Shown here piece by piece: positions 438-49,694 of a stretch of 63,090 bases of DNA; the first letter of the stretch is position 1, and each line of letters opens with the position of its first letter. The DNA comes from an uncultured Thermomicrobiales bacterium (GTDB taxonomy: Bacteria > Chloroflexota > Chloroflexia > Thermomicrobiales > CADCWN01): positions 1 to 63,090 of the forward strand of contig CADCWN010000022.1 of NCBI GenBank assembly GCA_902806415.1. Reading direction: 5' to 3'. Under the pieces are notes generated by a model, which saw only the letters and a list, made by a program, of their open reading frames with translations, did no database searches and was not told the origin of the DNA. A program made the position numbers and the translations under genes.

Positions 438-571
438 TGGCGAGTGGGCGAGTGGGCCAGTGGGCCAGTGGGCCAGTGACGAGTACGGCGAGCAATTAAG
501 TGATGGGCGGGCGCTGGTATATAGTCCAGCGCCCGGCCCTGTTTCTCCGCCCACTGGCCCACTGGCCCACT
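438..571. repeat. Inverted array of 8-mer tandem repeats (AGTGGGCC)n ... (GCCCACTG)n
   Basis: About 5 units at 438-480 and about 3 complementary units at 548-571, with an internal GC hairpin near 504-539. Confidence 0.85.
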
Positions 572-3500
572 AATCTACTTGTTGCCGATTCATGCGCCGG
601 CGGCGGCTGTTGCGATCGGGGCTATTCAGGCTCGCTTCGCGCAGCGGGGCCTCGTAGCGCCACTCGTAATAGTGCTGACCCACATTGCCCAACTCGATCT
701 GCCAACCCTCGGGGTTGTGCGGACTGTAGGTCAGGGTCCAGCGCTCGAAGACCTGGACGAGGATCATCCGGTCGATCCCATCAATGGTCACCTCGACCCA
801 GAACGGGTCGGTCAGCGGGTGGCCGGGGTCGAGCCCCGCCGTGTTCCCCTGCAACTGAGCGTAGAGGGTGTGCTGCGGATTGTCGTCCGGGCTGGTCATG
901 AACGTTTGCAGATACCATCGGGCGAAGACATCGGCGACGTTGTGGCCGGAAACCTCGTCGTAGCCGGTCAGCGTGACGAGCGCAGGCGGCTGTGTCCCCT
1001 CGGCGAACGGCTCGATCTTGCCGCCGGGCCGCAGGAGCCAGTTGATCGGTGCGCCCGCGTAGTTTTCGGTCCGCTTCGCGGCCTCGACGGTGGCGTCGGC
1101 GTAGGTCGGCGCGAGTTTGTCCGGCGCGGGCTGGCCGAGCGTGAGCGCCGCGAGGTTGCGGTCGGTCTCCTTGGCCGGGCCGACGAGCGGGATCTTGGCC
1201 GGGCCGACCTCGGTGCTGGCGTTGTCGCCGAGGTCGATCTTGCCGGTCAGCATCTCCCAGGCCAGCATGCCGACGCTGGTGAGGAAGCCGCCCTTGCCAT
1301 CGGCCACCCGCTCCATCCGGCCCTTATCCCAATACTGCGCGACCCGGACAGCGTTCTTGTCCTTGCCGTAGCTTTCCAGGGTTGACCCGGCGAACGGCTG
1401 CGGCCCCCAGAGCCAGGACTGGCGCTGGTTGGTATAGACCTGGCGGTCGGTCGTGTTCCAGGAGGTGTCGAACGCCGCCTTGTTCGCCGGGTCGTTGTGA
1501 CTGACGAGGGCGAGCCCGTTCTTCAGGAATTGCCCTTCCAGCGGCTCGGGACGAATCGAGAGCCAGCCATTGTCCTCCCAGATCGCGAGGCCGAAGTGGA
1601 GGTGCGCGCCGGTGGAGGTGGAGCCGGTATTGCCGACGAAGCCGATCGTCGTGCCGTGCGAGACGACCTGATTGACCTTGATCCCGGCGCTGACGCGCGG
1701 GTCGTCCTTGAGGTGGAGGTAGTGACTCCGCAGCAGCGTCCCCTGCGGCGAGCGATGGTAGAGTTCCACCGTCCAGCCGCCGCCAGCGGTGGCGTAGACG
1801 TTATTGATCAGGCCATCGGCCACCGCCAGGACCGGCGAGCCCTCGCCGTTCTCGCCGCGCGGCCACACGCCCTTGTTGAAGTCCACGTCATAGTGCATCC
1901 CCGCGCCATCGTTGTGGAAACCCTCACCGTAGAAGGAGCCGTCGCCGCCCGCGTACCAGGTCTCGCCCGCCCGGAAGGGGAGGTAGAGCGGGATCGAGGA
2001 GAGGGCGTCCAGATGGCGACCGGTGATCGCGGGTTGCAGAGGGTTCTCCGGTGCAACGGTGAAGATCGGCTGCCCGCCGCCGCCGGGGGAGAGATTGAAG
2101 TTCGGGTCGGTGATGAGGCCGCCCGCGTAGCTGGCCGCCCAGGAGAGGATGAGATTGACGTACCAGTCGGCGTTGTTGTAGGAGAAGAGCGCGCGGCGCA
2201 TGTCGCCCGGGGCACCGCTGGCCTGCAAGTAGAAGGCGGCGGCGTAGATCGACGATTCCGCATCCCAAATCCCCGCCATCCCGAGACCCTTGCTGGTGAT
2301 CGCGTCGATCTGCGCGGCATAGGGCCGGTAGCTGGAAGGGAGGAACTGCATCATGCCGAGCGCGTGCTGATCCTCGGTCCCGGCGAACTGCGCCAGATAC
2401 GGTCCGACCGCGCGCGGATCGAAGCCCGACTCGACCTTGGCGATCGCCAATAGGATCTCCTTCGGCACACCGGATCGCGCGGCGGCCTTCTCGAAGGTCG
2501 GCATCAACTGCGCTGGCGCGACCGCCGGGCCTGCGGGCGGCATCGGCACGCCGGGATTATTGGCCGGTGTGCCGCCGCCGCTGCTCGCGGCTGTTTCCGC
2601 GAGCGGCCGCCGGGCACCGGCGTAATGCTGCTGGTAGTAGGCCTCGCCCAGGCTGCTGATGACCGTCCCCGAGCCGATCGCCGAGGCGTGGATGAAGCGA
2701 CCCCCCCCGAGGGCGATCCCGGCGTGGCTGATCCCCGGCGCGTAGGTATCCTTGAAGAAGACCAGATCGCCCGGTTTGATGTTCGCCGGTTGCACGTTGA
2801 CGCCGACGCCCGCCTGGTCCCCGGCGACGCGAGGGAGCGTCACCCCGGCGGCCTTCTGGAAGATCCAGAGGACGAAGCCGGAGCAGTCCCAACCGACCGG
2901 CGACTGTGCTCCCCAAACATAGGGGACACCGAGGTGCTTCTGCGCCTCGGTCACGACCGCGGTGCGCCAATCGCCGCTGGCTGGCAGGACGCCGCCATCA
3001 CCCGGCATTTCGAGCGGGCCGGCGGGGATCTGCGGATCGAAGAGCGGCGAAGGGCTGGGCGAAGGACTCGGTGACGGGCTGGGAGACGGGCTCGGTGACG
3101 GGCTCGCCGAGGGGCTGGGCGACGGGGAAGTCGTGGCCTGCGGAGTCGCGGCGCGCGGCGTGCCGCGACCGCCCGGATTGACGATCGCGCCGCCGTTGGC
3201 CGGGATCGCCGTCGGCGATGGACTGGCCGCGACGGTTGGTGCCGCCTGGGTTGGGGCAGCCGCTGGCGCGGGGGTGGGCGTCGGCTGCGGTGCCGCCGAC
3301 TGCTGCGGTACGGCCGACTGCTGCGGCGCGGCCGAGGGTTTGGGCGTGGTTGAGGGGGCGATTTTAGGTGCCGTGGAGGGTACGCTCTTTGGTGCGGTCG
3401 AAGGGGCGGTCGAAGGGGCGGTCGAAGGGGCGCCCGGTTTGACCGTCGCCGTGGCGACAGTCTGCGCGCCGATGGTCGGCGTTCCCGCCACGCGCGTGGG

Positions 3501-4524: not shown

Positions 4525-4535
4525 CACCGCTGGTG

Positions 4536-6719: not shown

Positions 6720-6746
6720 CAGCTTCCCTGTCCCGGAACGTCGCGC

Positions 6747-8001: not shown

Positions 8002-8889
8002 TCATGGATTCGGCTTGAGTTGCAAATTCTTGAAGGCGAACTCCGCCGATGGCACCCCCGCCGGCGTCTTGGCGAAAATCCCGATCTCGCCCGCCTGGGT
8101 GATGGTGGCGTTGTTCAGGGTGTACACGCTCGTGCCATTGATCGCCAGCACGATCTGGTTGCCGCGCGAGGTCACCTGCAGGCGGTTCGGCGCGTCGCCG
8201 ACCTTGATCACCCCCTGCTGATTCGGGGCGTCGAGTGGTCGCAAGGTGCGCGAGGTGCCATCCGCCGTGACCTGGAAGAGCGAGAATCGCCCCTGCGCGG
8301 TGACATAGAAGATGTAGCGCTCGCTCGCCTTGTCTCCCTGGCGCGGTTGGCGGCGGAAGACGAGACCGTAGCCGGCCGAATCGTCGCCGTCCACCTTGCG
8401 CCCCTCGACCTCCAGGGTGAAGTCCTGGAATTTCTGGCCTTCGGGTGCGAAGAACGACCACTCCTGATCGTCGGCTAGCACGGCGACCCGGTATTCGTTC
8501 TGCGCCGCGTCGTAGGTGCGCCGCAGCTTGTTGGTCGTGTCCTCGCCCGATTCCCAGCTTCGCCAGTTGCTCGTATAGCCGCCGACCGTCGTCGCCACCG
8601 CCACCGGCGTCGTCGGGCGGGGAGCAACTGTCGCCGTCGCGGTTGGGGAGCGCGTGGGGACGCGGGTCGGTGTCGCGGTCGGTGTCGGTGTCGGGGGGAC
8701 GGTCGGTGTCGGTGTCGGTGTCGGTGTCGCGGTCGCTGTTGCTGTCGCGGTCGCGGTCGGCGGGACGAGCGCCGCGATGGCAGTCCCTTCCGGCGCACCG
8801 CAGGCGGTTATCGCCAGCGTGAGCAGGAGGAGCGTCAACGCCCTGGCAACCCCGCGCCAGTTGGGATAGCGCCGCAAAGAGACGCGCAT
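8002..8889 (-). CDS. Lipoprotein with Thr/Pro linker and C-terminal concanavalin/DUF1080-like beta-sandwich
   Basis: Lipobox ITAC; TATA/TPTP repeats; DFTLEVE...GYGLVFR...NRLQV...GEIGI pattern; GGAGGGGG SD. Confidence 0.8.
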   Translation of the reverse strand: MRVSLRRYPNWRGVARALTLLLLTLAITACGAPEGTAIAALVPPTATATATATATPTPTPTPTVPPTPTPTATPTRVPTRSPTATATVAPRPTTPVAVATTVGGYTSNWRSWESGEDTTNKLRRTYDAAQNEYRVAVLADDQEWSFFAPEGQKFQDFTLEVEGRKVDGDDSAGYGLVFRRQPRQGDKASERYIFYVTAQGRFSLFQVTADGTSRTLRPLDAPNQQGVIKVGDAPNRLQVTSRGNQIVLAINGTSVYTLNNATITQAGEIGIFAKTPAGVPSAEFAFKNLQLKPNP

Positions 8890-9055: not shown

Positions 9056-9109
9056 TGGTACGACCGGGGGCCGGGCGGGTAGCTACCCGCCCGGCCCCCG
9101 GTCGTACCA
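9056..9109. repeat. 54-bp perfect palindrome with no spacer (possible terminator)
   Basis: TGGTACGACCGGGGGCCGGGCGGGTAG followed directly by its exact reverse complement. Confidence 0.9.
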
Positions 9110-17422: not shown

Positions 17423-17471
17423 ACCCCTCCCCCGGCCCCTCCCCTGAAGCGGGAGGGGCCGGGGGAGGGGT
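17423..17471. repeat. REP-like hairpin (21-bp stem)
   Basis: ACCCCTCCCCCGGCCCCTCCC-N7-reverse complement; arm shared with the 27104-27404 element. Confidence 0.85.
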
Positions 17472-20550: not shown

Positions 20551-20603
20551 CGGAGGCGGCGAGGGGGCCGGGGATTCACTCCCCGGCCCCCTCGCCGCCT
20601 CCG
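20551..20603. terminator. 24-bp-stem hairpin between convergent genes (probable bidirectional terminator or REP)
   Basis: CGGAGGCGGCGAGGGGGCCGGGGA-N5-reverse complement. Confidence 0.75.
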
Positions 20604-23751: not shown

Positions 23752-23781
23752 GGGACGCGGGGGTAACTCCGCGTCCCTTTG
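23752..23781 (+). terminator. Probable intrinsic terminator
   Basis: GGGACGCGG...CCGCGTCCC followed by TTT. Confidence 0.5.
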
Positions 23782-23782: not shown

Positions 23783-23897
23783 AGTCGCGAGTCGTGGGCC
23801 GTGGGTCGTGAGAACTGCCTGTCAGTGGTGGTCTTGTTCGCAGACCGATTGCCGCTGGGAGTGAGTTCTCACGACCCACGACCCACGACTCGCGACT
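23783..23897. repeat. Inverted heptamer-array hairpin (GTCGTGG/CCACGAC)
   Basis: 34-nt arms with one mismatch, ending just before the argS SD. Confidence 0.9.
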
Positions 23898-23910: not shown

Positions 23911-26058
23911 ATGTCAGCAGAGAAAGAAGGGGCGATCAGAGAGCGGATCGCGCGGGTGCTGGACGAGCTCGGCTATCAGCCGCGCGCCATCGACTTGCGG
24001 CGGATCCCGTTCTCCGGGGCGTGGGGCGCGGCGACCTCAGTCGCCAAGGCGCTGGCCGGGCAGGCCGCCGCCGAGGATATCGCCGCGGCGACGGTGGGCC
24101 TCGACAAGAAAGAGGCGAAGGCGCGGGCCGCCGGGATCACCAATGCGAAGGCGCAGGAGATCGCCGAGCGACTGGCGGCGCGGCTGTTGGCCGACGGCGC
24201 GGTCGATCGGGTCGAGGCGATCAACGGCTTCGTCAACATCTATTTCGATGCCGCCTCCGCCGCGTTGCAGACGGTGCGGCGGGTTCTCGCCGAGGGGGCC
24301 GAGTACGGTCGCGGCGCGGCGCTCAACGAGAAGGTGATGGTCGAGTTCTCGCAGCCGAACACCCACAAGGCGTTCCACGTCGGTCACCTGCGCAATGCCG
24401 CGCTGGGCAACGCCCTCTGCAACATCCTGGAGCGCGCCGGCTTCGGCGTGATCCGGGCGAATTATATCGGCGACATCGGCAAGCATGTCATCTCCTGCCT
24501 CTGGTGCTACCGCGCCTTCCATCTCGGCCAGGAGCCGACGGAAGGGAAGGGCCGCTGGCTGGGGCAGATTTATACCGAGAGTTTGCAGCGGCTGTCCTAT
24601 CGCCAGGAGGTCGTCGATTTCATCAACAAGCTCAGTAAGGAGGATGAGGCGTTCAAGGCGTCCTCGGACCGGATGATCAAGGAACTCTGGCGGCGCAAGG
24701 TCGCTTCCGGTGAGGATATCGCCTACCTGCTCGGCCAGCTCAGCGGCAAGGGTGACCTGGATCTGGCGAAGGTCTACAACCCCGATTGTATCGCCGAGCT
24801 CTGGCAGATTATCGGCGCGCAGTTGCAGCAGGAAGTGCGACCGACGCGGACGACCGGCCCGGTGACCGACGAGGCGACCGCGCGGGCGTATCTCGACGAG
24901 TGGCGCCGGATCAACATCCACGCCGACTGGTGGATCCCCGCCGGGGAGTGGGAGCGCCAGTATCGCGAGACGTGGCTGGAGTGGGAGCGCAAAGACCCCG
25001 CCCTCGTCACCCTCTGGGAGCAGACCAAAGCCTGGAGTATGGAGGAGTTCGGCCGAATCTACGGCGAACTCGGCGTCCGCTTCGACCGCTGGTTCTACGA
25101 GAGCGAGGTCGAGGAGCCGGGCCGCGCGATCGTGCAGGAACTCCTCGACAAAGGGATCGCCGAGATCAGCGAGGGCTTGCCGGTCGTCAAGATCGACGAG
25201 AAGCTGGGGCTGGAGAAGGAGACCTATCGGGTGCTGCCGATCCTCCGCTCCGATGGCACGACCCTCTACTCGACGAAAGACCTCTCGCTGACGAAGGAGA
25301 AGTTCGAGCGCTACGGGGTCGATCGGGCGATCTGGGTGATCGACGTGCGGCAGTCGCTCTACATGCAGCAGATCTTCAAGATCATGGAACTGTGGGGTTT
25401 CCCGCAAGCCGATAAGTGCTTCCACCTCGGCTACGAGATGGTCGCGCTGCCCGAGGGGGCGATGAGCTCGCGGAGCGGCAAGACAATCCTCTATGACGAC
25501 ATCGCCCCCGAAGTCTTCCGCCGGGCGCGGGCGGTCATCGACGAGAAAAACCCCGAGATGCCGGACGAGCGCAAGGCGATCGTGGCGAAGCAGATCGGCG
25601 CGGGTGCGCTCCTCTACGGGATGCTCGACCGCGACAACAACCGCCTGCTGATCTTCGACGCCGAGGAGGCGCTGAGCCTGCACGGGCAGTCGGCCCCGTA
25701 CATCCAGTACGCCCATGCGCGGGCCTGCCGCCTCCTGGAGCGGGCCGATGGCGTGCCGGACCTGGACACGGCCCCCCCCGAGTTGGGCGAGTTGACCGCC
25801 CACGAGATCAATCTGATCGAGCAGATCGCGCTGCTGCCCGCCGAGGTGCAGCGCGCCGCGCGCGAGTACAAGCCGCTGGTGATCGCCACCTATGCCTACA
25901 ATCTCGCCGTGCGCACCAACGAATTCTACGAGCATTGTCGCGTCCTCGACGCCCCCGAGCCGCAGCGCAGCGCGCGCCTGGCGCTCGTCGCGGCGGCGCG
26001 GCAGGCCCTCGCCGCCACCCTCGGCCTGCTCGGCATCGCCGCGCCGGAGGCGATGTGA
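23911..26058 (+). CDS. argS: Arginine--tRNA ligase (with large insertion)
   Basis: VEFSQPN..K.FHVGHLRN, RSDGT..Y, MSSRSG, YIQYAHAR, FYE.C.V motifs. Confidence 0.95.
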   Translation: MSAEKEGAIRERIARVLDELGYQPRAIDLRRIPFSGAWGAATSVAKALAGQAAAEDIAAATVGLDKKEAKARAAGITNAKAQEIAERLAARLLADGAVDRVEAINGFVNIYFDAASAALQTVRRVLAEGAEYGRGAALNEKVMVEFSQPNTHKAFHVGHLRNAALGNALCNILERAGFGVIRANYIGDIGKHVISCLWCYRAFHLGQEPTEGKGRWLGQIYTESLQRLSYRQEVVDFINKLSKEDEAFKASSDRMIKELWRRKVASGEDIAYLLGQLSGKGDLDLAKVYNPDCIAELWQIIGAQLQQEVRPTRTTGPVTDEATARAYLDEWRRINIHADWWIPAGEWERQYRETWLEWERKDPALVTLWEQTKAWSMEEFGRIYGELGVRFDRWFYESEVEEPGRAIVQELLDKGIAEISEGLPVVKIDEKLGLEKETYRVLPILRSDGTTLYSTKDLSLTKEKFERYGVDRAIWVIDVRQSLYMQQIFKIMELWGFPQADKCFHLGYEMVALPEGAMSSRSGKTILYDDIAPEVFRRARAVIDEKNPEMPDERKAIVAKQIGAGALLYGMLDRDNNRLLIFDAEEALSLHGQSAPYIQYAHARACRLLERADGVPDLDTAPPELGELTAHEINLIEQIALLPAEVQRAAREYKPLVIATYAYNLAVRTNEFYEHCRVLDAPEPQRSARLALVAAARQALAATLGLLGIAAPEAM

Positions 26059-26159
26059 ACGCGGAACGGGGAACGCGGAACGCGGAATTTGCTCTGGAGC
26101 AACCGCACTCAGCGGGGGCTCCGTCAACCTTAATTCCGCGTTCCGCGTTCCCCGTTCCG
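26058..26159. repeat. Inverted heptamer-array hairpin (AACGCGG/CCGCGTT)
   Basis: Perfect 28-bp arms at 26062-26089 and 26132-26159. Confidence 0.9.
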
Positions 26160-26174
26160 ACTTCGGGGAATTGG

Positions 26175-27098
26175 TTGCGCGGGGCGCGGATCGCGCCGAT
26201 CGCGGTGCCGATGGGGCTCGGGGTCTGCGAGTTCGGGCCGGAGATCGGGCCATACGCGCTTGATGCGGGGCTGCGTGATCGGACAGCCGCGACCCCCTCC
26301 GGCTGGCCGGGCGCGGGTCGGTTGGAACCGCTGACGATCACCGATGTGCCGCCGTCGCTCCCGTCGCCGCTCTACGGCGACCCACGCCTGAAGAATCGCG
26401 AGCCGATCCTGACCGCCTGTAAGCGCCTGGCACGCTACACCCAGGCCGCCATCGCCGACGGTCGCCTGGCGCTGGCGCTCGGCGGGGACCACGCCCTCTC
26501 GATCGGCTCGATCGCCGGGGCGGCGGCGACCTGCGAGCGCCTGGGAATCCTCTGGATTGACACGCACGCCGACCTGAACACCCCCGAGACGACGCCGAGC
26601 GGCAATATCCACGGGATGCCAATGGCGCTCGCGCTCGGGCATGGCAACCGCGCCCTGGCGACGATCGCCGGAGCCGCGCCGAAGGTGCGCCCCGAGGATG
26701 TGACGATGATCGGCCTGCGGGATCTCGACGCCGGTGAGGAGGCGTTCCTGGCGCGCCACCCGGTGCGGGTCTATCGGATGGCCCAGATCGACGCGCTCGG
26801 CGGCTTCGCGGCGACGGTGGCGCGGGCGATCGACGAGTTGGCCGCGAGCGGGGTCGACGCCGTCCACCTCTCCTTCGATCTCGACGTCCTCGACCCTTCG
26901 TGCTTCACGGCCACCAGCACACCCGTCCCCGGTGGGCTGATTGTCCGCGAGGCGCTGGCCGGGCTGCGCCTCCTGCGCGAGAGCACCTTGCCGATCCGCT
27001 CCGTCGATTGGGTCGAGTTGAACCCCCTGCTCGACACGCGCGGGGCCAGCACCGGCGTGGCGGTCCGCCTGCTCAAAGGCTTGCTCGGCGACGATTGA
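26175..27098 (+). CDS. rocF: Arginase
   Basis: GGDHA, DTHAD, SGNIHGMP, SFDLDVLDP, VELNP motifs; TTG start inferred. Confidence 0.88.
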   Translation: MRGARIAPIAVPMGLGVCEFGPEIGPYALDAGLRDRTAATPSGWPGAGRLEPLTITDVPPSLPSPLYGDPRLKNREPILTACKRLARYTQAAIADGRLALALGGDHALSIGSIAGAAATCERLGILWIDTHADLNTPETTPSGNIHGMPMALALGHGNRALATIAGAAPKVRPEDVTMIGLRDLDAGEEAFLARHPVRVYRMAQIDALGGFAATVARAIDELAASGVDAVHLSFDLDVLDPSCFTATSTPVPGGLIVREALAGLRLLRESTLPIRSVDWVELNPLLDTRGASTGVAVRLLKGLLGDD

Positions 27099-27103: not shown

Positions 27104-27404
27104 GGCGTGACCTCTCCCCCGGCCCCTCCCCTAATGGCGGTGGCGAACTTAACGACCCTATGGCCCGTCAAGGCTCGGCCTCCCGATCGCGCGGCACCGA
27201 TGGCGCTCCTCACAGGGAGGATGCGGTAATCAAGTTCGCCACCGCCATCAAGGGAGGGGTGCCTCGCTATGAGGTTTGCGCTCGTCGGATTGGTTGAGCG
27301 GCGACAAGTACCTTGATTTGTACTATCGCCCTCCCCGTAAGCCACCGCGCATCATCAAGGCACCCGTCTCCGCGTCGGGGAGGGGCCGGGGGAGAGGTCA
27401 CGCC
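27104..27404. mobile_element. Composite REP/MITE-like element with 28-bp perfect terminal inverted repeats
   Basis: 27104-27131 is the reverse complement of 27377-27404; nested 17-bp IR at 27134-27150 / 27232-27248; no transposase. Confidence 0.65.
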
Positions 27405-28388
27405 TCAATTCCTGAAGAGCTGGACGATCATCAGGCCGTGGTAGCGGCTACGGATCACCGCCATCCCGGCCCGGCCGAATTTGGGGGAGAGGATGTTGGC
27501 TCGATGGCCGGGGCTGTCCATCAGCCCGCGATGCGCGGTGACGACATCCGGCGCGAAGGCCAGGTTCTCGCCCGCCGTCAGGTAGGCGATATTGGCGTCG
27601 GCGAGCCGATCGAACGGATCGCCCGTCACCTGGGACTCGTGCGCGAAATAGCCGCGTTCGAACATCTCGACCGCGTGCGCGTGTCCGACCGGCACCAGCG
27701 CCCGATCGAATTCGAGGGCCGGCAAACCGACGCGCGCCCGCTCTTCGTTGACCAGCGCCAGGATCTGTGCCTCCGCCGCCGGATCGGGGGCGAGTTCAGT
27801 CGCCGCCACGCTGAACGGGAGTTCGCGCCCCGCCTCGCCCTCGTTGACCGGCGAGGGCAGGGCCAGGGTATCGGCGGCGGTCTGCAGCAGCGGTCGGATG
27901 CGTGCCATTTGGAGGAAGCGCGCATCCCCTTCGAGGAGGAGGGAGGCCAGGCGCGCCTCGCGCAGCGCCGGGCCGAGCCCTAGTGCGGGTGCGGCGACCG
28001 CGAGCGGGGCCAGCAGCAATCCGGCGAGGAGGCAGCCGACGATCGCGCCCGGCACCGCGCCAAGGAGGCGATCGAGTCGGCGCAGGCCACGCCGCTGCCC
28101 CAGCAGGCCGAGCAGCGGTCCGAGCGGACGCTGGAACGTCAGCACGGCGATCACCTGCCCGACGATCGCCAGCAATCCGAAGGCGAGTATGGTGGTAACC
28201 CTGGGATTGAGGCCGGGCAAGCGTGCCAGCGTGGTCGCCAGCGGCGCATACCCGAGCAGCATCAGGGTCACGATAATGCCGGTGCAGATCAGGCCGCTAG
28301 TCGCGCGCAACGCCCCGAAGCCCATCCCGACGATCGCCGCGAGCGCGACGAATCCCATCACTATCAGATCGATCGCCTGCCCGCCCAC
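27405..28388 (-). CDS. CvpA-family membrane domain fused to a CAP/SCP domain
   Basis: N-terminal TM helices with DRLLGA; C-terminal VNEER, YFAH, GENLA, SPGHRANIL. Confidence 0.88.
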   Translation of the reverse strand: MGGQAIDLIVMGFVALAAIVGMGFGALRATSGLICTGIIVTLMLLGYAPLATTLARLPGLNPRVTTILAFGLLAIVGQVIAVLTFQRPLGPLLGLLGQRRGLRRLDRLLGAVPGAIVGCLLAGLLLAPLAVAAPALGLGPALREARLASLLLEGDARFLQMARIRPLLQTAADTLALPSPVNEGEAGRELPFSVAATELAPDPAAEAQILALVNEERARVGLPALEFDRALVPVGHAHAVEMFERGYFAHESQVTGDPFDRLADANIAYLTAGENLAFAPDVVTAHRGLMDSPGHRANILSPKFGRAGMAVIRSRYHGLMIVQLFRN

Positions 28389-30102: not shown

Positions 30103-32199
30103 ATGCGCGATCTCTCCGAACAGACCTTCGGGTCGTATCGTCTCGAAGGGTTGCTCGGGCGCGGGGGGATGGGCGAGGTCTATCGCGCCCGTCACCTCCG
30201 CCTGTCGGGTCGCCTCGCCGCCGTCAAAGTCCTGCCCGCATCCCTCGCCAGCGAGCCCGACTTCCTGCGCCGCTTCGAGCAGGAGGCCAATTCCGCCGCC
30301 TCGCTCGATCATCCCAATATCCTGCCGGTCTGGGACTACGGCGAGCAAGACGGGACGCCGTATCTCGCCATGCCGCTGATGCCGAGCGGTAGCCTGAAGG
30401 AATTGCTGGAGCGCCAGGGAGCGCTCTCACCGGATGAGGCAGAGCGCTACCTGACCCCGATCGCCGAGGCGCTCGACTATGCGCACTCGCGTGGCTTGTT
30501 GCACCGCGACGTGAAACCGGCCAATATCCTGCTGCGCGACGATGGTCGCCCGCTGCTCGCCGATTTCGGGATCGCCAAGGCGATCGAGGCGGGGCAGACC
30601 GGCGGGCTGACCCAGGCCGGCGGCGGGATCGGCACGCCGGAGTACATGGCCCCCGAGCAGATCGAGGGCCGGGCCGAGAAGAGGAGCGATCTCTACTCCC
30701 TGGGGGTGGCCCTCTATCAGATGCTCAGCGGTCGCGTCCCCTACGATGGCGCGACGCCATACGAGATCGCGCTGAAGCAACTGGGTACCCCGCTGCCGCC
30801 GATCCGCCAGTTTCGCCCGGACCTCTCGCCGACGATCGAGGCGGTCCTGCACAGGGCGCTGGCGAAAGACCCGGCGGCGCGGTATGGCTCAGGGCGAGAA
30901 CTTGCCGCCGCCTTCCGCGAGGCGATCGCGCGACCGGCTGGCACCGCGCCGACGATCATCGGCGCGCCCTACGCCCAGCGCACGACCCCGCTCAATCTCC
31001 CGCCCCCCGTGCCGGTGCCGGTGGGAGGGTCACCGGTGGCCCAGCAGCAGCTCCCGCTCGTTTCCCCCGTGCCGGATACGAGGGGATCGCGCACCGGGCG
31101 TGGCACGTCGTGGCCGCTGATCGCCGCCGCGATCATCGCGGCGGGCCTCATCCTCATCATCGGCGGGCTCGGGGCGTATACCGCCTTCTTCCAGGGTGCC
31201 ACGCCCACTCCCCCGCCGCCGCCGACCAATACCCCCGTGGCGGCGCCGCTGATCGGGGCGACGCAGACGGCGGCGGCGCTCGCCACGGCGGGCGCGATCA
31301 CGCCCACCCTCGCCGCAACCGCCACCGCCACGCCGAATCTGACCGCGACCGAGGCCGCCATCGCCGGTGCGACCGCGACGGCGAACGCGATCGGCGGGGC
31401 GACGGCGACAGCGAACGCGGCCAACGAGGCGACCGCCACCGCGAACGCCGCGCGCGCCTCGGCCAGCGCTGCGACGAATGCGACCGCGACCGCGAATGCC
31501 AACGCCGCCGCCTCTGCGACGGCGCGGGCGGCGCGCTCGGCGACCGTCGCCGCCGGGCTGACCGCGACCGCCGCCGCCCAGCCGACGGCAACGCCGGTGC
31601 GCACGGCAACTAACACCCCCGTGCCGTCGACAGTGACACCGATCCCGCCGACGGCCACGCCGGTCCCGCCGACCCCCGCCCCGACCCGCGCGCCGACGAC
31701 CGGCCCTGTCGCCACCGCCGCCCCGCCAGCGGGCAACTGGGGGCCTGCACTGGCCCCGCTCAATGGGGGCAAGCAATATAGCGATCCTGATGGCCGTTTC
31801 TCTTTCAGCGTCCCGGCGAACTGGGTGCAGGGGACCGCGAACAACAGCGCGGTCGCGTTCGGTCCGCCGGACAATTCGGCGAACTTCACCGTCAGCCTCG
31901 ATCGTGTGCCGGGGAATACGACGATCGACGCCTACAACGCGGCGGTCGAGCAGCAACTCCGAGCACAGTTCGCCGACTACACGGCGGTGAGCCTCGATAA
32001 GGTCACGATCGGCAACCAGCGCGCCTATAAGCGTGTCTCGCGCGCCACCGTCCAGGGGCAGGTGATCCAGTTCGTCCAGGTCTACTTCATCGCCGATAAC
32101 CAGGCCCACGTCCTCACTTTTGCCAGCCTCCCGGCGAACTTCGACCGGCTCGTGCCGGTTTTCGACGGGATCGCCGGTTCGTACAGGGTGGGCGGTTAA
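30103..32199 (+). CDS. Membrane Ser/Thr protein kinase with Ala/Thr-rich linker and PsbP/DcrB-like extracellular domain
   Basis: GRGGMG, AVK, HRDVKPAN, DFG, GTPEYMAPE; one TM helix. Confidence 0.92.
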   Translation: MRDLSEQTFGSYRLEGLLGRGGMGEVYRARHLRLSGRLAAVKVLPASLASEPDFLRRFEQEANSAASLDHPNILPVWDYGEQDGTPYLAMPLMPSGSLKELLERQGALSPDEAERYLTPIAEALDYAHSRGLLHRDVKPANILLRDDGRPLLADFGIAKAIEAGQTGGLTQAGGGIGTPEYMAPEQIEGRAEKRSDLYSLGVALYQMLSGRVPYDGATPYEIALKQLGTPLPPIRQFRPDLSPTIEAVLHRALAKDPAARYGSGRELAAAFREAIARPAGTAPTIIGAPYAQRTTPLNLPPPVPVPVGGSPVAQQQLPLVSPVPDTRGSRTGRGTSWPLIAAAIIAAGLILIIGGLGAYTAFFQGATPTPPPPPTNTPVAAPLIGATQTAAALATAGAITPTLAATATATPNLTATEAAIAGATATANAIGGATATANAANEATATANAARASASAATNATATANANAAASATARAARSATVAAGLTATAAAQPTATPVRTATNTPVPSTVTPIPPTATPVPPTPAPTRAPTTGPVATAAPPAGNWGPALAPLNGGKQYSDPDGRFSFSVPANWVQGTANNSAVAFGPPDNSANFTVSLDRVPGNTTIDAYNAAVEQQLRAQFADYTAVSLDKVTIGNQRAYKRVSRATVQGQVIQFVQVYFIADNQAHVLTFASLPANFDRLVPVFDGIAGSYRVGG

Positions 32200-37749: not shown

Positions 37750-39219
37750 TTGCGCCTGAGACCGTGGTATATGCTGGTCGTGATCATCCTGCTCTCGCTG
37801 ATCGCGGGATGGGTCGTCTATCCGGGGCCTGTCCTCGATCCGTTCCGCTGGAAGCAGGATCTCGCCATTCGCGAGGGTCTGGACTTGCAAGGTGGGCTCC
37901 AGGTGCTGCTGGAAGCGCGCCCGCCCGCCGGACAGACGGTTGGCGAGAGCGAGTTGGCCGGCACGCGCGATACGATCGAGCGCCGCGTCAGCGGCCTCGG
38001 TGTCAGCGAGCCGGTGATCCAGACGCGCGGCAATAATCAGATCATCGTAGAACTGCCCGGTATCAAGGATCCGCAGGAGGCGGTGCAGACGCTGCGCGAG
38101 ACGGCGCTGCTCGAAATCGTTTCCACCGGGGCGACCCCCCTAAACCCGGGTCAAACGATCACCACCTCGCTCGGCGGGCCGGAGACGCTGGGCGGTGCGC
38201 GCGCCGCAACCCCCGGCGCGAACGGGACGCCCGGCGCGAACGGGACACCGGGTACCCCGGTCGCGGCGACGCCGGTCGCCTCGCCAACACCCGCCGCCGC
38301 GGCCGGCCCGGTCTACCAGACCGTGATCCAGGGGAAGGATCTCGATGATGCGTTCCCGACCACCGATCAGGTCGGCACCCTCGTCGTCGGTTTCCGGCTG
38401 AAGGGCGATGCGGCGGATGATTTCTACCAATTCACCAGCTCCAACATCGGCAAGTATATGTCGGTGGTGGTCGATAAGCAGGTCATCAATACCGCCTCGA
38501 TCAACGGCGCGATCAGCACGCAGGGGATTATCCAGGGGATGAGCCAGGATGAGGTGAACAAGCTCGTCTTGCAGTTGAAGTCCGGCGCGCTGGAAGTGCC
38601 GCTCGAAGTGGTGCAGAGCCGCACGGTCGGCCCGACCCTCGGTGCCGACTCGATCCGCAAGAGTATTGAGGCCGGGATCGTCGGCCTGTCGATCGTGGCG
38701 CTCTTCATGATCCTCTTCTATCGACTGCCCGGCCTGCTCTCGGTCCTCGCGCTGCTGCTCTACACCCTCTTCTCGGTCGCCGTCTACAAGATCCTCGGGG
38801 TCGTCCTGACCCTCGCCGGGCTCGCGGGCTTCATCCTCTCGATCGGCATGGCGGTCGACGCCAACGTGCTGATCTTCGCGCGGATGAAGGAGGAGTTGCG
38901 CCTCGGGCGGACCCTCTCCTCCGCGATCGAAGGGGGCTTCCACCACGCCTGGCCGTCGATCCGCGACTCCAACATCTCGACGATGATCACTTGCGGCATC
39001 CTCTACTGGTTCGGGCGCTACGTCGGGGCGAGTATCATCCAGGGCTTCGCCCTGACCCTCTTCCTCGGTGTGGCGGTCAGTATGTTCACCGCCGTGACGG
39101 TGAGCCGGACCTTCCTGCGACTGATGGTCGACGCTGGCGTTGCGCGCCATCCCCGCTGGTACGGCACCGACGTCGTCGCCCCGGCGCGAACCTCGGCCTC
39201 GGTCCCGACCGGCGACTGA
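37750..39219 (+). CDS. secD: Protein translocase subunit SecD
   Basis: GLDLQGG, RV.GLGVSEP, VGPTLG, GMAVDANVLIF; GGAGG SD then TTG. Confidence 0.95.
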   Translation: MRLRPWYMLVVIILLSLIAGWVVYPGPVLDPFRWKQDLAIREGLDLQGGLQVLLEARPPAGQTVGESELAGTRDTIERRVSGLGVSEPVIQTRGNNQIIVELPGIKDPQEAVQTLRETALLEIVSTGATPLNPGQTITTSLGGPETLGGARAATPGANGTPGANGTPGTPVAATPVASPTPAAAAGPVYQTVIQGKDLDDAFPTTDQVGTLVVGFRLKGDAADDFYQFTSSNIGKYMSVVVDKQVINTASINGAISTQGIIQGMSQDEVNKLVLQLKSGALEVPLEVVQSRTVGPTLGADSIRKSIEAGIVGLSIVALFMILFYRLPGLLSVLALLLYTLFSVAVYKILGVVLTLAGLAGFILSIGMAVDANVLIFARMKEELRLGRTLSSAIEGGFHHAWPSIRDSNISTMITCGILYWFGRYVGASIIQGFALTLFLGVAVSMFTAVTVSRTFLRLMVDAGVARHPRWYGTDVVAPARTSASVPTGD

Positions 39220-39299
39220 CGAAGTACGAAGTTGGAAGTACGAAATAAGGGCGCGGTGCCGTTCCCCAATTCGTACTTCGTAGTTCGTACCTCGTACTT
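39219..39299. repeat. Inverted heptamer-array hairpin (ACGAAGT/ACTTCGT)
   Basis: About 4 units per arm, between the secD stop and the secF SD. Confidence 0.85.
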
Positions 39300-39313
39300 T
39301 ACTTGGGGGAAAT

Positions 39314-40246
39314 GTGTTCGATATTGTCAACAAGCGCAAGTGGTTCTTCCTCTTCTCGGGGCTGATCATGGTGCCGGGGATCGTCTTCCTGCTGCTCGGC
39401 GGGTTAAAGCTCGGCATCGACTTCACCGGCGGCACGATCTGGGAGATGCAATTCAACGCGCCGGTCGAATCGCTGGCGGTGCGCGCGGTCCTCGAAGAGA
39501 ATGATTACGAGGGCGCATCGGTCCAGTTAGCCGAGGGGAACACGGTCCTCATTCGCGGGCGCGAGTTGAAAGAGGGCTCGGACGAGAAAGAGCGGCTGGC
39601 GACCGCCCTACGGTCGCGCTACGGCGATTTCACCGAGTTGCAGATCCAGACGGTCGGCCCGACGGTCGGCACCTCGATCAGCCAGCGCGCCTTCCTGGCC
39701 GTCGCGCTGACCTCGATCGGTATCCTGCTCTACCTCGCCTACGCCTTCCGCAACGCACCCCACCCGTTCCGTTACGGCGTCTGCGCCGTCGCGGCGATGT
39801 TGCACGATGTCGTCGTGGTCGTCGGGGTCTTCGCCATCCTGGGCTACTTCTTCGGGGTGGAAGTTGACGCCCTCTTCGTGACCGCGCTGCTGACGATCAT
39901 CGGCTTCTCGGTCCACGACACGATCGTCGTCTTTGACCGGATCCGCGAGAACGCGAGTCGTCGCGGCGCGCCGGAATTCAGCGAGACGGTCAACTACAGC
40001 CTGGTGCAGACGTTGGTCCGCTCCCTCAATACGTCGCTGACCGTCGTCTTCACCCTGCTGGCGCTGTACCTCTTCGGTGGCGAGACGATCAAGAACTTCA
40101 TCCTCGCCCTCCTGATCGGGATCATCAGCGGCACCTATTCCTCGATTTTCAACGCCAGTCTGCTGCTGGTCGTCTGGGAGCGCGGCGATTTCGGTCGACT
40201 CTTCGGTCGCTTCCGTCGGGGGCGCACCGCGACATCGGCGGCATAG
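39314..40246 (+). CDS. secF: Protein translocase subunit SecF
   Basis: GIDFTGG, VGPTVG, HD, GFSVHDTIVVFDRIREN, GTYSSIF motifs. Confidence 0.95.
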   Translation: MFDIVNKRKWFFLFSGLIMVPGIVFLLLGGLKLGIDFTGGTIWEMQFNAPVESLAVRAVLEENDYEGASVQLAEGNTVLIRGRELKEGSDEKERLATALRSRYGDFTELQIQTVGPTVGTSISQRAFLAVALTSIGILLYLAYAFRNAPHPFRYGVCAVAAMLHDVVVVVGVFAILGYFFGVEVDALFVTALLTIIGFSVHDTIVVFDRIRENASRRGAPEFSETVNYSLVQTLVRSLNTSLTVVFTLLALYLFGGETIKNFILALLIGIISGTYSSIFNASLLLVVWERGDFGRLFGRFRRGRTATSAA

Positions 40247-42172: not shown

Positions 42173-42197
42173 ATTGCGCGTGGGGCGAGGGGCGCGA

Positions 42198-45334: not shown

Positions 45335-45357
45335 AGTGGGGGGGAGGGATAGGAAAC

Positions 45358-46377: not shown

Positions 46378-46414
46378 GCGAGTTAGACCGAGCGAAGATG
46401 AGCGAGGAATACAG

Positions 46415-47248: not shown

Positions 47249-47326
47249 TGCTCGTCGCCCGATAGCCGATCATTCTCGCTGGCGAGGGCGACCGCCCGGT
47301 CGCGCCTCGATGAAAGGATTTTGTCT

Positions 47327-48427: not shown

Positions 48428-48500
48428 CGCCCATCCGGCGACGACCGCCTTGGTCGCCGCCTCGCGCCGACTCGGGCTGTCGGACTGGTGGAGGTATTGC

Positions 48501-49604
48501 ATGGCGGCGGTCAACGTTGGCGGGCGCGCATTCGAGCCGACGCGCGCCCGCTGGAGTCGTGTCTGGGGTGGCGTGGGGAGCCGGGCGGCGCTGCTGTTGC
48601 CGACGCTGACCCTCCTGCTCGTGGCGGCGGCGCTGTTCAGCGTGGGGCGCGGGGCGGTGGCGATCAGCCCGGCGCAAGTGCTCGCCATCCTGCTCGGCAA
48701 GGTGGGGATCGCGACCGACACGGCCTACACGGCCCAGCAGGCGGCGGTCCTCTGGAATATCCGCCTGCCGCGCGTCCTGCTCGGGATGCTAGTCGGCGGA
48801 GGGCTGGCGATCTCCGGCGCGGCGCTCCAGGGGATTTTCCGCAATCCGCTGACGGACCCCGGACTGATCGGCGTCTCCAGCGGCGCGGCGCTCGGCGCGG
48901 TCGGCGCGATCATCCTCGGTATCACCGCGTTCGGCGCGTTCGTGATGCCACTCGCGGCGTTCATCGGCGGCCTGCTCGCGACGCTGCTCGTCTACGGTCT
49001 CGCGCGCCACGGCGGGCGGGCGGAGGTGGTGACGCTGCTGCTGACCGGGATCGCGGTCAATGCGATCTGCGGGGCCGCGGTCGGTTTCCTGATCTTCCTG
49101 GCCTCCGACGCCCAGTTGCGCTCGATCGTCTTCTGGTCGTTCGGCAGTCTCGGCGGCGCGACCTGGAGCGCGACGCTCGCCGTCGCGCCGCTGATCATCG
49201 TCGGCACCATGCTCCTGCCGCGCTGGGGGCGGGCGTTGAACCTGCTATCACTCGGTGAGCGCGAGGCGCGACATCTCGGCGTGGAGACCGAGCGCGTGCG
49301 CCTCGCCCTGATCGTCCTGACCGCGCTGATCACCGGCGCGGCGGTCGCGGTCTGCGGCACGATCGGTTTCGTCGGGCTGGTCGTCCCGCACCTGTTGCGG
49401 CTGATCGCCGGGCCGGATCACCGCACGCTGCTGCCCGCGAGCGCGATCGGCGGCGCGGCGCTGCTGACGCTGGCGGACCTCTTCGCGCGCACGGTCGCCG
49501 CGCCGGTAGAAATCCCGCTCGGGGTGATCACGGCGTTGGCCGGTGGTCCGTTCTTCCTCTGGCTCCTCTGCCGCACGCGGCGCGCACACGGCGGATGGGG
49601 ATAG
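48501..49604 (+). CDS. FecCD-family ABC permease (HmuU-like)
   Basis: RLPR, FRNPL.DP, GFVGLVVPH, EIPLG motifs. Confidence 0.92.
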   Translation: MAAVNVGGRAFEPTRARWSRVWGGVGSRAALLLPTLTLLLVAAALFSVGRGAVAISPAQVLAILLGKVGIATDTAYTAQQAAVLWNIRLPRVLLGMLVGGGLAISGAALQGIFRNPLTDPGLIGVSSGAALGAVGAIILGITAFGAFVMPLAAFIGGLLATLLVYGLARHGGRAEVVTLLLTGIAVNAICGAAVGFLIFLASDAQLRSIVFWSFGSLGGATWSATLAVAPLIIVGTMLLPRWGRALNLLSLGEREARHLGVETERVRLALIVLTALITGAAVAVCGTIGFVGLVVPHLLRLIAGPDHRTLLPASAIGGAALLTLADLFARTVAAPVEIPLGVITALAGGPFFLWLLCRTRRAHGGWG

Positions 49605-49694
49605 TGACGAGTGACGAGTGGCGAGTAGAGGGCGCTGAAGACAAGTGATCTTAAAAGGTCTTCCGCCAAACCTATTCGTCACTCGTCACTCGTC
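49603..49694. repeat. Inverted heptamer-array hairpin (AGTGACG/CGTCACT)
   Basis: Between the permease stop and the GGAGG SD of the ATPase. Confidence 0.85.

Follow-up and report, generated by a model that had tools for sequence, protein, structure and literature searches.

What kind of sequence are five hairpins that share one build within a single stretch of bacterial DNA (the window, 63,090 nt analysed at full length), each with arms made of a different tandem unit of 7 or 8 nt? Our preferred answer, to which we give a probability of roughly 60%, is that they belong to a genome-wide family of small palindromic insertions, mobile and ORF-less kin of the 23S rRNA intervening sequence (IVS) element.

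The original prediction described five hairpins of one architecture; all five were recovered in place and fold as long hairpins. Element 1 (439-571, no strand assigned) has 8-mer arms, with five copies of GGCCAGTG, or (AGTGGGCC)n, at 439-478 and the reverse complement at 549-571, and its 70-nt centre holds an inner hairpin of its own. Element 2 (23783-23897, + strand) belongs to the AGTCGTG family, with left arm 23783-23810, centre 23811-23869 and right arm 23870-23897. Its left-arm units are AGTCGCG/AGTCGTG/GGCCGTG/GGTCGTG, and the extended arms reach 46 nt with 87% complementarity. It is located before the SD and ATG (23911) of argS and after a terminator-like hairpin (GGGACGCGG...CCGCGTCCC then TTT; 23752-23781, + strand) that lies immediately 5' of it. 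This terminator-like hairpin is kept in the related genomes G001, G004 and G006, with a diverged version in G002.

Element 3 (26057-26164, + strand; AACGCGG family) comprises a left arm at 26057-26087 (GAACGCG x4.4), a centre at 26088-26133 and a right arm at 26134-26159. The unit AACGCGG contains no stop codon; the first unit is overlapped by the argS TGA (26056-26058), and an arginase-family gene follows from a TTG at 26175. Element 4 (39219-39299, + strand; ACGAAGT family) has its left arm at 39219-39244 (ACGAAGT x3.7), its centre at 39245-39269 and its right arm at 39270-39299, between the secD TGA (39217-39219) and the secF GTG (39314). Element 5 (49603-49694, + strand; AGTGACG family) has its left arm at 49603-49626 (AGTGACG x3.4), its centre at 49627-49675 and its right arm at 49676-49694, flanked by the stop of a permease gene (TAG, 49602-49604) and the start of a heme-type ABC ATPase gene (GTG, 49710). 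An overlap of the first unit with a stop codon had been proposed for four elements and is present in four: at the argS TGA (26057), the secD TGA (39219), the permease TAG (49603) and, on the minus strand, the TAG of an NlpC/P60 gene (570-3644) at element 1. Element 2 overlaps no stop codon. The downstream genes had also been named correctly (argS, arginase-family, secF, heme-type ABC ATPase), with starts 11-16 nt past the right arm.

As RNA, elements 1 to 5 fold with energies of -84.2, -91.0, -78.7, -37.2 and -55.4 kcal/mol (z-scores of -9.1, -12.2, -11.6, -5.5 and -9.3), and for none of the five did any of the 200 shuffled controls fold as well as the real element. The centres, of 25-70 nt, contain no ORF in all five cases, and a search of the whole window against Rfam at the gathering score gave no matches. 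Intrinsic terminators were ruled out for the five elements, which lack a T-run and whose stems of 23-46 bp enclose loops of 25-70 nt.

Inverted arrays across the genome

The search for inverted arrays of period 7 or 8 that had been proposed as a check recovered at least 364 pairs in the 5.16-Mb genome, about 7 per 100 kb, so the five hairpins are not isolated. When a second array was sought within 3-130 nt, period-7 arrays genome-wide had an inverted partner 294 times and a direct one 3 times, and period-8 arrays 40 times and never; for other periods the inverted to direct counts were 2:6 (period 6), 1:5 (period 9) and 1:3 (period 12). This pattern of inverted pairs is far beyond chance. The commonest gap is 40-59 nt (233 of 364 pairs), and arm length has its mode at 30-31 nt (206 of 580 arms), corresponding to about 4.4 heptamer units, sometimes octamers. 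The median paired span of the genome's elements is 26 nt, with 95% complementarity. The arms also have a polarity: of 312 5' arms, 223 contain AGT and none contains ACT, while the 3' arm bears ACT, the complement of the AGT of the 5' arm. Both arms are kept complementary to each other, variant units being mirrored across them at 160 positions versus 5.3 expected (368 are one-sided). Elements nested within one another occur.

A conserved architecture with free sequence had been predicted. The architecture stands; the units are not free, since they group into roughly a dozen families that recur, each spanning one or two mutational steps, with the AGT/ACT polarity fixed. The commonest units are AGTCCGT (the most abundant arm family, with 61 copies), AGTCGTG, AGTCGTC, AACGCGG and AAGGTCG. 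In contrast to the arms, which are about 95% consensus, only 87 of 313 centres resemble another centre, a difference that a simple copy-and-drift process leaves unexplained.

These counts bear on whether the arrays could have arisen without a shared origin, through slippage during replication (simple repeats) or as repeats that form G-quadruplexes or bind regulators. Similar heptamers have been read as G-quadruplex formers in Xanthomonas (PMC4692102) and as "global regulator binding sites" in Geobacter (PMC2700814). However, such origins are contradicted by the 294:3 ratio, the fixed arm length, the mirrored variants and the linkage of one gene family, S23p, to the arrays across phyla (see below), and we find them scarcely credible here. 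Most units are also without G-runs (AGTCCGT, AGTCGTG, ACGAAGT): GGG is absent from all five of the commonest, and G-tracts of at least 3 are restricted to certain families, such as AGTGGGCC.

Placement, transcripts and insertion polymorphism

According to crude gene calls made for this analysis, 195 of 227 gene tails have their stop codon at most 20 nt from the element, and 101 of 183 gene heads have their start codon 11-40 nt from it. Co-directional junctions are enriched for elements; divergent ones hold 11 of 200 element sites, versus 568 of 3519 junctions genome-wide. Other copies are in frame inside leuS, carB, purL and a photolyase gene, and the leuS copy is a 36-residue insertion absent from all five orthologues examined. 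The mean fold energy of the elements is -66 kcal/mol, the sense strand being slightly more stable (113:86, p=0.004) and having more G-U pairs in its fold (545 vs 437). The genome contains an RNase III gene (rnc). In one study, two RNA libraries (X2, X6) yielded contigs that run through the junction secD-element 4-secF.

Elements are gained and lost as DNA insertions between close relatives, whose copy number ranges from 0 to hundreds. In the congener G002, which has neither the S23p gene nor elements, we found 0 pairs in 400 kb, versus 28 in a comparable sample of G000. The empty alleles anticipated by the original prediction exist: secD|secF, rmlA|argS and hmuU|hmuV are empty in G002, where the genes at the element 5 site abut without a spacer (TGA-G-ATG), and argS|arginase, the element 3 site, has no heptamer array in G001. 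At rmlA|argS, the element 2 site, G001 has the same arm family in the same place with an unalignable centre, and element 2 is absent in G002, G004 and G006. At secD|secF, the copy of G001 is decayed, and G003, G004 and G006 have other units. The presence of different units at this junction in four independent lineages needs either a strong target preference or replacement of the arms in place. Comparing filled and empty versions of leuS and secD|secF, whose flanks have diverged, no target-site duplication was visible.

Could the host have selected these stems as cis-regulatory structures that set the expression of neighbouring cistrons, by RNase III processing, by 3' protection or by stalling at a stem on the stop codon? 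In E. coli, REP elements at most 15 nt from a stop codon affect translation, and the tight placement against stops and ahead of SDs and starts, the enrichment of co-directional junctions, the sense-strand bias in stability and G-U pairs and the RNA contigs spanning secD and secF would all agree with such a role. However, the same junctions are empty in the congener, and the unit at one junction varies by genome. Nesting, in-frame copies in genes, empty junctions and variable copy number are traits of selfish insertions rather than of conserved regulators, and we regard host-selected regulation as improbable.

If the hairpins are instead palindromic insertions, as we favour, they would persist where they do little harm, that is, right behind stops in operon junctions. 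Units bearing TAG or TGA at a period of 7 would there place stops in all three frames, and stop-free units would also be tolerated in frame, in protein surface loops. By analogy with the literature on the Coxiella IVS, a transcribed perfect stem of 26-30 bp may be a substrate of RNase III, in which case the operon mRNA would be cut between cistrons. Such cleavage could not be efficient everywhere, since the in-frame copies in the single-copy essential genes leuS, carB and purL need translating through.

TIGR02436 cassettes and mobilising enzymes

Versions of the arrays filled with cargo had been proposed, and they do exist: each of the 4 TIGR02436 (S23p) genes in this genome is bracketed by inverted heptamer arrays of the same kind. 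With a family cut-off (TIGR02436/PF05635) of 24 bits, these genes score 124.5, 116.2 and 108.3 bits, and 56.6 + 45.7 bits for a frameshifted copy. In three of the four cassettes the arm units come from abundant short families (AGTCGTC, AGTCGTG, AAGGTCG). The S23p/IVS protein family has solved structures and, to our knowledge, no known function.

Among relatives, 32 of 44 S23p loci are inside such pairs, and each of the remaining 12 has one array or more. In a sample of 80 loci from many phyla, 50 pass a strict test and 72 adjoin one or more period-7 arrays, with a density of 2.19 arrays per kb adjoining the S23p gene versus 0.25 per kb in the outer flanks. The polarity is also found across phyla, with AGT in 28 and ACT in 5 of 59 upstream arrays, and ACT in 31 and AGT in 1 of 62 downstream arrays, and arms there again have their modal length at 4.3-4.4 units. 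S23p is the sole gene consistently linked to the arrays. In 41 related genomes, 18 have both the gene and arrays, 3 only arrays (G010, G011 and G022, in which the S23p gene was undetected), 4 only the gene and 16 neither; leaving out G018 and G034, both unpublished, gives 16/3/4/16.

These data suggest that the arms define the family (about 30 nt, about 4.4 heptamers, AGT/ACT cores) and that the interior could be almost anything. With a TIGR02436/S23p gene as interior, the element would be the same kind of cassette as the 23S rRNA IVS, and the window copies would be an ORF-less form with a poorly conserved centre. A derivation of the short elements by deletion from cassettes was not supported, the short centres having no detectable similarity to cassette interiors (3 marginal matches, vs 4 with shuffled queries). 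For the AGTCCGT family, in spite of its 61 copies, no S23p cassette was found in this 92.6%-complete assembly.

The linkage could also have a functional basis. The arrays may be putative binding sites of the S23p ring protein, each lineage having its own unit, with phased AGU/ACU cores running round a pentamer, by analogy with TRAP and its triplet repeats; hairpin formation and protein binding would then compete. The protein might maintain, protect or spread "its" hairpins, much as RAYT acts on REPINs. The consistent linkage (4/4, 32/44, 50/80), the co-occurrence of gene and arrays in relatives and the arm length and fixed-polarity core common to phyla point in this direction, as does the nearest solved structure of the cargo protein, 2gsc (E 1.6e-21, 5 chains), which is called a homopentamer (PMC4990558). 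The units also co-diverge with the protein: array units are at a distance of at most 1 in 52% of the pairs with 65-80% protein identity, 14% at 55-65%, 6% at 45-55% and 2-3% below 45%. However, this is equally predicted by plain linkage of a gene with its flanks, the gene is undetected in three genomes with arrays, and the phased AGT cores per arm are not sharply five. In Coxiella, S23p is probably untranslated in vivo, according to Warrier et al. (PMC4990558). We consider such binding possible, if rather doubtful.

Concerning the enzymes of mobility, neither a transposase nor a parent element was found for the hairpins. None of the related elements qualifies as the autonomous parent of a MITE, with a transposase gene and matching ends and subterminal sequence: the sole ORF-bearing relatives encode S23p, and the short centres are unlike the cassette interiors. 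It is very unlikely that a RAYT or IS200-like Y1 enzyme mobilises the hairpins as REP/REPIN-type elements, or that they are retro-elements spread by a reverse transcriptase with an Avd-like S23p. The layout is REPIN-like (two conserved inverted arms and a less conserved spacer, about 100 nt), 4 Y1_Tnp matches occur in G000, S23p weakly resembles Avd, a protein of DGRs (E 1.8e-4, 21.8 bits vs a cut-off of 80), and RVT_1 matches are found in 9 of 21 array-bearing genomes vs 2 of 20 others. But Y1_Tnp is about as frequent in array-bearing (12 of 21) as in array-free genomes (9 of 20), and none of the 4 Y1 genes of G000 is flanked by arms or has a period-7/8 array within 500 nt, while all 4 S23p genes do. 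RVT_1 matches are absent from G000 and G001, both rich in elements. For this genome, an origin by RAYT or reverse transcriptase is thus already largely refuted.

Comparison with known repeats

Short, multicopy, bounded by terminal inverted repeats and polymorphic for presence, the hairpins have these features in common with MITEs. Among bacterial MITEs and palindromic repeats, Correia/NEMIS elements are processed by RNase III in mRNA and Rickettsia palindromic elements are found in frame in genes. Like these and the REPIN-RAYT system, the elements described here are hairpins of about 100 nt with high copy number and insertion polymorphism, located at the 3' ends of genes, with in-frame insertion possible and arms better conserved than the spacer. 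They differ in having arms of tandem heptamers rather than unique terminal repeats, in their linkage to a gene for a small four-helix-bundle protein, and in that a partner transposase was not recovered; nor was a target duplication seen, the flanks compared having diverged.

The intergenic tandem heptamers of cyanobacteria are known as STRRs. Read as AGTCCCC, they fit the polarity seen here (AGT in 5' arms, ACT in 3' arms before starts), as do those of Beggiatoaceae, likewise intergenic, read as GATAACT. CCCCAGT/AGTCCCC oligonucleotides appear in PMC4692102. The TAACTGA sets of Beggiatoaceae end just 5' of start codons, like the right arms here (PMC4679880). Unlike our elements, STRR and TAACTGA arrays are mostly direct, with no nearby inverted partner, although one inverted case is reported in a Beggiatoa genome.

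Intergenic tandem heptamers were described by Rehm et al. 2015 (PMC4692102) in Xanthomonas (GGGAATC) and Nostoc (GGGGA(T/C)T); they are transcribed and vary in length among strains, and convergent "inverted repeat" pairs number 70 in X. campestris and 75 in X. axonopodis. Most units here cannot form G-quadruplexes, and a link to S23p is not mentioned in the available portions of that account. In Geobacter metallireducens, families of four tandem heptamers total 49 copies, and one class is drawn as a hairpin with five tandem MTYCTGA heptamers per arm (PMC2700814). These share the heptamers and the hairpin form; their annotation, as regulatory RNA or sites that bind regulators, differs.

For decades the abundance of heptanucleotide tandem repeats in bacteria has seemed odd, and each case has had its own account: G-quadruplexes, regulator sites, STRRs, a peculiarity of the Coxiella IVS. 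Our data tie them to S23p, through inverted pairs, fixed length and polarity and natural S23p flanks in many phyla; in some genomes the arrays reach hundreds of copies that lack an ORF and are located in operon junctions, some even within essential genes. We tentatively raise a broader idea, that S23p/TIGR02436 is the protein partner of heptamer-armed hairpins throughout bacteria (and in archaea), a new kind of protein-repeat partnership in which a pentameric four-helix-bundle ring would match about five phased AGU/ACU cores of its own array and hairpins would be maintained or spread without a conventional transposase. If true, rRNA IVSs, STRRs, the Xanthomonas "G4" repeats, the Geobacter elements and perhaps the Beggiatoa TAACTGA sets would be one class of element, and a single cause would account for the excess of heptanucleotide repeats that has long been remarked on in prokaryotes. 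The elements are relevant to the annotation of starts and stops, to assembly and to the interpretation of mRNA processing in soil bacteria, and they open concrete experiments on an old question, the nature of the IVS and how it moves.

The IVS is the closest of the known systems. In Coxiella, the 23S IVS has a 28-bp stem with tandem GACAGAT heptamers and an S23p ORF, and RNase III cuts at the first repeat; IVSs have been suspected to be mobile since the 1990s, as cited in the same paper (PMC4990558). Our elements share with the IVSs of Coxiella, Leptospira and Brucella (PMC4990558) a stem of the same class, about 28 bp of tandem heptamers in terminal inverted repeats, and an S23p/TIGR02436 gene in the loop, which four other copies in the genome have and the five window copies lack. 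The 23S rRNA is absent from this assembly, and the window copies are in or between protein genes rather than in 23S helix 25 or helix 45. The differences are therefore of location and number: mRNA junctions and protein genes instead of rRNA, and a single genome with hundreds of copies, mostly ORF-less, whose arms belong to roughly a dozen families.

Inverted heptamer arrays in the window and across the genome

The five hairpins predicted in the window were all found in place, at 439-571, 23783-23897, 26057-26164, 39219-39299 and 49603-49694 (elements 1 to 5). In each, an array of 3-5 tandem units (7 nt long, or 8 nt in element 1) and its reverse complement enclose a centre of 25-70 nt. Their RNA folds reach -37 to -91 kcal/mol, with z from -5.5 to -12.2 and 0 of 200 shuffles as good; the hairpin observation is real and statistically overwhelming. 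The neighboring genes had also been guessed correctly (argS, an arginase-family gene, secD/secF, and a BtuC/HmuU-like permease with a heme-type ABC ATPase), and the proposed overlap of the first unit with a stop codon holds in four elements, being in element 1 the TAG of an NlpC/P60 gene on the minus strand. Element 2 has no such overlap and is preceded by a terminator-like hairpin. No family match was found in an Rfam search of the window.

The original prediction proposed a genome-wide search, which we ran on the assembly of the source genome, G000 (5.16 Mb, 425 contigs, 68.6% GC), in which the window is contig C22. Tandem Repeats Finder detected 1309 period-7 arrays, and the pairing of arrays with reverse-complement arrays of equal period, up to 700 nt apart, left 364 non-overlapping elements, 233 of them with a gap of 40-59 nt. 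When partners at gaps of 3-130 nt were counted as a control, inverted and direct pairs numbered 294 and 3 for period 7 and 40 and 0 for period 8, with 2:6, 1:5 and 1:3 for periods 6, 9 and 12. By this count a further 366 period-7 arrays remained unpaired; 216 are intergenic without a partner inside 260 nt, and many of these are outer arms of bigger nested elements. The claim that unit sequences are free fails, as the units form recurrent families, many only 1-2 substitutions from one another. The commonest are AGTCCGT (61 elements), AGTCGTG (53), AGTCGTC (42), AACGCGG (28) and AAGGTCG (27), accompanied by around ten smaller families, for a total of 43 canonical units.

Arm length has its mode at 30-31 nt, about 4.4 units (206 of 580 arms), and complementarity between arms is 95% across a median of 26 nt. 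Within period-7 elements, AGT is found in the 5' arm of 223 from 312 and ACT in the 5' arm of none (0/312), a polarity that belongs to the element and not to the strand read, since the element is a palindrome. Off-consensus unit positions recur as mirror images in the other arm in 160 cases, where 5.3 are expected, and are one-sided in 368; either selection maintains arm pairing, therefore, or one arm is copied from the other. Centres are far less conserved than arms: a blastn match (E<1e-3) with another centre exists for only 87 of 313 (0/313 when shuffled), and those that match cluster in groups of up to 10, in either orientation, with roughly 65-80% identity by eye. The contrast between highly similar arms across loci and divergent centres requires that the unit sequence is under selection, that correction occurs from arm to arm and from copy to copy, or that centres are often replaced.

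Nesting of elements is frequent, and for this reason hairpin loops and the sites behind hairpins are candidate targets. One composite family has ten members in the source genome (C15:40705-40843, C15:79908-80049, C15:111242-111386, C366:17258-17410 and six more), with outer arms that are mostly AGTCGTC and inner arms of AGTCCGT on one side and the complement of AGTGCCG on the other. These inner arms pair incompletely, as they are drawn from two different unit families. Two large-gap elements, L005 (C37:5425-5803) and L006 (C43:18973-19432), hold in their interiors copies of a further small palindrome, roughly GGGCGTATGCNATACGCCC, and long perfect inverted repeats; in L006 there are three levels of nesting, with AATGACG arms around AGTGGGCC arms around the interior.

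The window also contains other repeats. A second palindromic family is represented at 27106-27405, with 28-nt arms (GCGTGACCTCTCCCCCGGCCCCTCCCC and its complement) enclosing about 244 nt, and an inner inverted repeat at 27123-27157 and 27225-27259. In contigs from a DNA run (X1) and an RNA-library run (X2), 27133 and 27378 are joined through CAA alone, and this joint, whose sides have just 21-23 nt, weakly suggests a short-hairpin allele lacking the interior. Perfect GC-rich palindromes are found at 9056-9109, 17423-17471 and 20551-20603 (arms of 27, 21 and 24 nt, loops of 0-7 nt), two of them of the GGGGAGGGGCCGGGGG type, kin to the arms of the 27106-27405 element. Tandem repeats of period 6, 12, 18, 24 and 30 at 3045-3432, 8666-8760 and 31341-31449 lie inside long reading frames and are probably low-complexity protein segments, unrelated to the hairpins.

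Placement within the genome and junctions in relatives

Placement was assessed with a crude GC3-based gene calling of our own, which gave 3942 calls and 78% coverage. Among the short elements, 210 of 330 overlap no gene call by more than 15 nt; beside these, the element lies no more than 20 nt from the gene end at 195 of 227 gene tails, and 11-40 nt from the gene start at 101 of 183 gene heads. Junctions holding elements are co-directional in 156 cases, convergent in 33 and divergent in 11, the genome-wide numbers being 2365, 586 and 568. Solo arrays, placed by the same rule, are of the AGT type in 52 cases and of the ACT type in 2 behind stops, and before starts of the ACT type in 40 and of the AGT type in 13.

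Most overlaps with gene calls can be put down to over-called starts (76 + 14) or to a stop codon within the first arm (30); 10 copies are internal to a call. A Pfam-domain scan covered 8 of these 10, and 4 of the 8 sit in frame between Pfam domains of single genes: leuS (leucyl-tRNA synthetase; C369:3670-3776), carB (carbamoyl-phosphate synthase large subunit; C382:37538-37642), purL (C120:55893-55971) and a photolyase gene (C305:1689-1814). From the other four, two are in PMT_2 family proteins, one is in a reading frame without a Pfam match, and the last is in a GT2-GT4 frame, possibly a fusion of two gene calls. The leuS copy, encoded by an AACGCGG element, is a 36-residue insertion in a variable loop directly before the conserved IPVFTTRPDT motif, and it is absent in the orthologues of the related genomes G001, G002, G003, G004 and G006. 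Internal copies are more frequent in stop-free unit families (8/143) than in the others (2/187; Fisher p=0.023), which fits random insertion followed by selection. Stop-bearing period-7 units would end all three frames and survive only behind genes, and stop-free units could persist in frame.

The alignment of junctions across relatives, also proposed in the original prediction, revealed both array-free and filled alleles. At secD/secF, the congener G002 has only TAA, 26 nt and GTG, without the array, G000 carries the ACGAAGT element, and G001 a decayed remnant of the same family. The units differ in G003 (GAGTAAC, with nested GTGATGA), G004 (CTGAGGA) and G006 (TAGGCGT). As far as these alignments go, the different units in four lineages would imply a strong target preference or successive replacement. 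The junction between the rmlA-like gene and argS is array-free in G002, G004 and G006; G000 and G001 have a common arm family there, with unalignable centres. Between argS and the arginase gene, G001 is array-free, G003 has a small period-8 pair, G006 a GGACTCA array, and G004 reads N. The genes hmuU and hmuV abut in G002 (TGA-G-ATG), and in G000 an element and a new SD lie in between. We looked for target-site duplications at the filled and empty secD/secF and leuS sites and none was recognizable in their diverged flanks.

Within the genus the contrast with the congener G002 is clean: it has no TIGR02436 match, no AGTC array and, in a 400-kb sample, no inverted period-7/8 pair, against 28 such pairs in an equivalent sample of G000. 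In these samples (loci L179-L198 for G002) GC content is 58.4% in G002 and 68.3% in G000, a large gap for congeners.

S23p cassettes and the mobility of the elements

Arrays flanking cassettes of the four-helix-bundle protein S23p (TIGR02436, PF05635) had been mentioned in the original prediction, and the source genome bears this out: it has four S23p genes, three intact (C78, C186 and C402) and one frameshifted, and each sits between inverted heptamer arrays. Arm units from the five commonest families occur in three of these cassettes, which is uninformative since those families hold 211 of 364 copies. Counting the four genes of the source genome, matching inverted arrays surround the gene in 32 of 44 loci from relatives, and the remaining 12 have one array or more each. 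In 41 genomes of the same order, given without a test statistic because the genomes are kin, the TIGR02436 gene and AGTC-type arrays are both present in 18, arrays only in 3, the gene only in 4 and neither in 16 (16/3/4/16 without the unpublished G018 and G034).

The association holds across phyla. A wider scan, with one genome per species, returned 602 relatives, from which 80 loci were kept, from Acidobacteriota, Planctomycetota, Chloroflexota, Bacteroidota, Clostridia, Proteobacteria, Elusimicrobiota, Gemmatimonadota and two archaeal MAGs. Matching inverted period-7 arrays were found in 50 of them, at least one adjoining period-7 array in 72, and arrays on both sides in 49. At the 70 loci of standard layout, the density of period-7 arrays is 2.19 per kb beside the S23p gene versus 0.25 per kb in the outer flanks, and 115 of the 128 adjoining arrays have period 7. 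The polarity is also maintained across phyla, with AGT in 28 and ACT in 5 of 59 upstream arrays, and ACT in 31 and AGT in 1 of 62 downstream arrays; the arm mode is shared as well, the 4.5-copy bin holding 52 of 135 arrays. In L031, a Planctomycetota MAG contig, the two arrays beside the S23p gene have grown to 34.7 and 34.3 copies, near-equal numbers that suggest arms copied from each other, not independently expanded.

Units drift together with the protein: units at most 1 position apart occur in 52% of locus pairs with S23p identity of 65-80%, in 14% at 55-65%, in 6% at 45-55% and in 2-3% below. This is no proof of unit recognition by S23p, because linkage alone predicts such co-drift. The number of phased AGT cores per arm, which bears on the idea of an S23p pentamer, has a broad spread from 1 to 5, blurred by variant units.

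We conclude that the window elements are ORF-less members of a class of heptamer-armed hairpins whose full form is the S23p/IVS cassette (IVS, intervening sequence of 23S rRNA genes), and that they behave as mobile, largely selfish insertions. The earlier proposal of empty sites of a mobile cassette is sustained in part: cargo-filled forms and array-free junctions exist, but the centres are unlike cassette interiors. The short centres gave 3 marginal blastn hits, versus 4 with shuffled queries, and a reading of them as remnants of cassette ends was rejected as unsupported. Other cargo was sought in 11 ORFs of large-gap elements, without any Pfam match at E<=0.01; the interiors of these elements contain other nested palindromes. 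A true IVS was sought as well, and no 23S rRNA is assembled in G000.

Candidate partners for movement were considered in the source genome. The Y1 transposase was rejected, being present in 12 of 21 genomes with arrays versus 9 of 20 without, and none of the four Y1 genes of G000 is flanked by arrays. Reverse transcriptase was also rejected, since RVT_1 is absent from G000 and G001; RVT_1 matches occur in 9 of 21 array-bearing genomes versus 2 of 20 others, with none in these two, which have many elements. The match of S23p to the DGR protein Avd is weak.

RNA-level observations and known systems

For 200 elements between co-directional genes, the mean fold energy is -66.5 kcal/mol in the sense strand and -65.2 in the antisense. 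In 113 of them the sense strand folds more stably and in 86 less so (Wilcoxon p=0.004), and its G-U pairs number 545 versus 437. This bias is a weak hint of constraint at the RNA level, and strand composition could also cause it.

DNA of the organism turns up in runs from biocrust and soil, four of which are RNA libraries from a single study. Assembled contigs from two of the RNA-library runs bridge secD, the element and secF (X2 record 15, 38998-39903; X6 record 31, 38823-40141), although such contigs show no starts, ends, strand or level and such libraries may contain DNA. Contigs of X2, X6 and the DNA run X1 all end at 23889, in element 2's right arm, where their loose ends diverge; such ends are the usual effect of a repeat on an assembler and do not speak for RNA processing. 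A joint from 26091 to 26128 in the centre of element 3, with a side of 32, appears in contigs of the same three runs and may represent an alternative centre or a flipped one. Within 6 nt after the only RNase III gene in the assembly (C45:8120-8818) comes a GAACGCG-armed element (L015, C45:8824-9138) with an interior of 259 nt. We reasonably infer that element hairpins may be processed by RNase III.

Comparison systems for these elements include Correia/NEMIS, Rickettsia palindromic elements, REPIN-RAYT, TRAP and STRR. Our literature search, mostly outside subscription journals, found no paper that connects the S23p family with heptamer arrays at large. The present finding has real potential to unify several scattered observations. 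In Xanthomonas, inverted pairs of heptamer arrays (70 and 75) are interpreted as G-quadruplex repeats (PMC4692102); Geobacter metallireducens has heptanucleotide elements, one class of them with a hairpin layout (PMC2700814); and sets of TAACTGA precede start codons in Beggiatoaceae (PMC4679880). The 23S IVS of Coxiella is described with a 28-bp terminal stem, an S23p ORF and tandem GACAGAT heptamers whose number varies among strains, and its stem is cleaved by RNase III at the first of these heptamers (Warrier et al. 2016, PMC4990558). As described there, its architecture is the same as that of the heptamer-armed elements found here.
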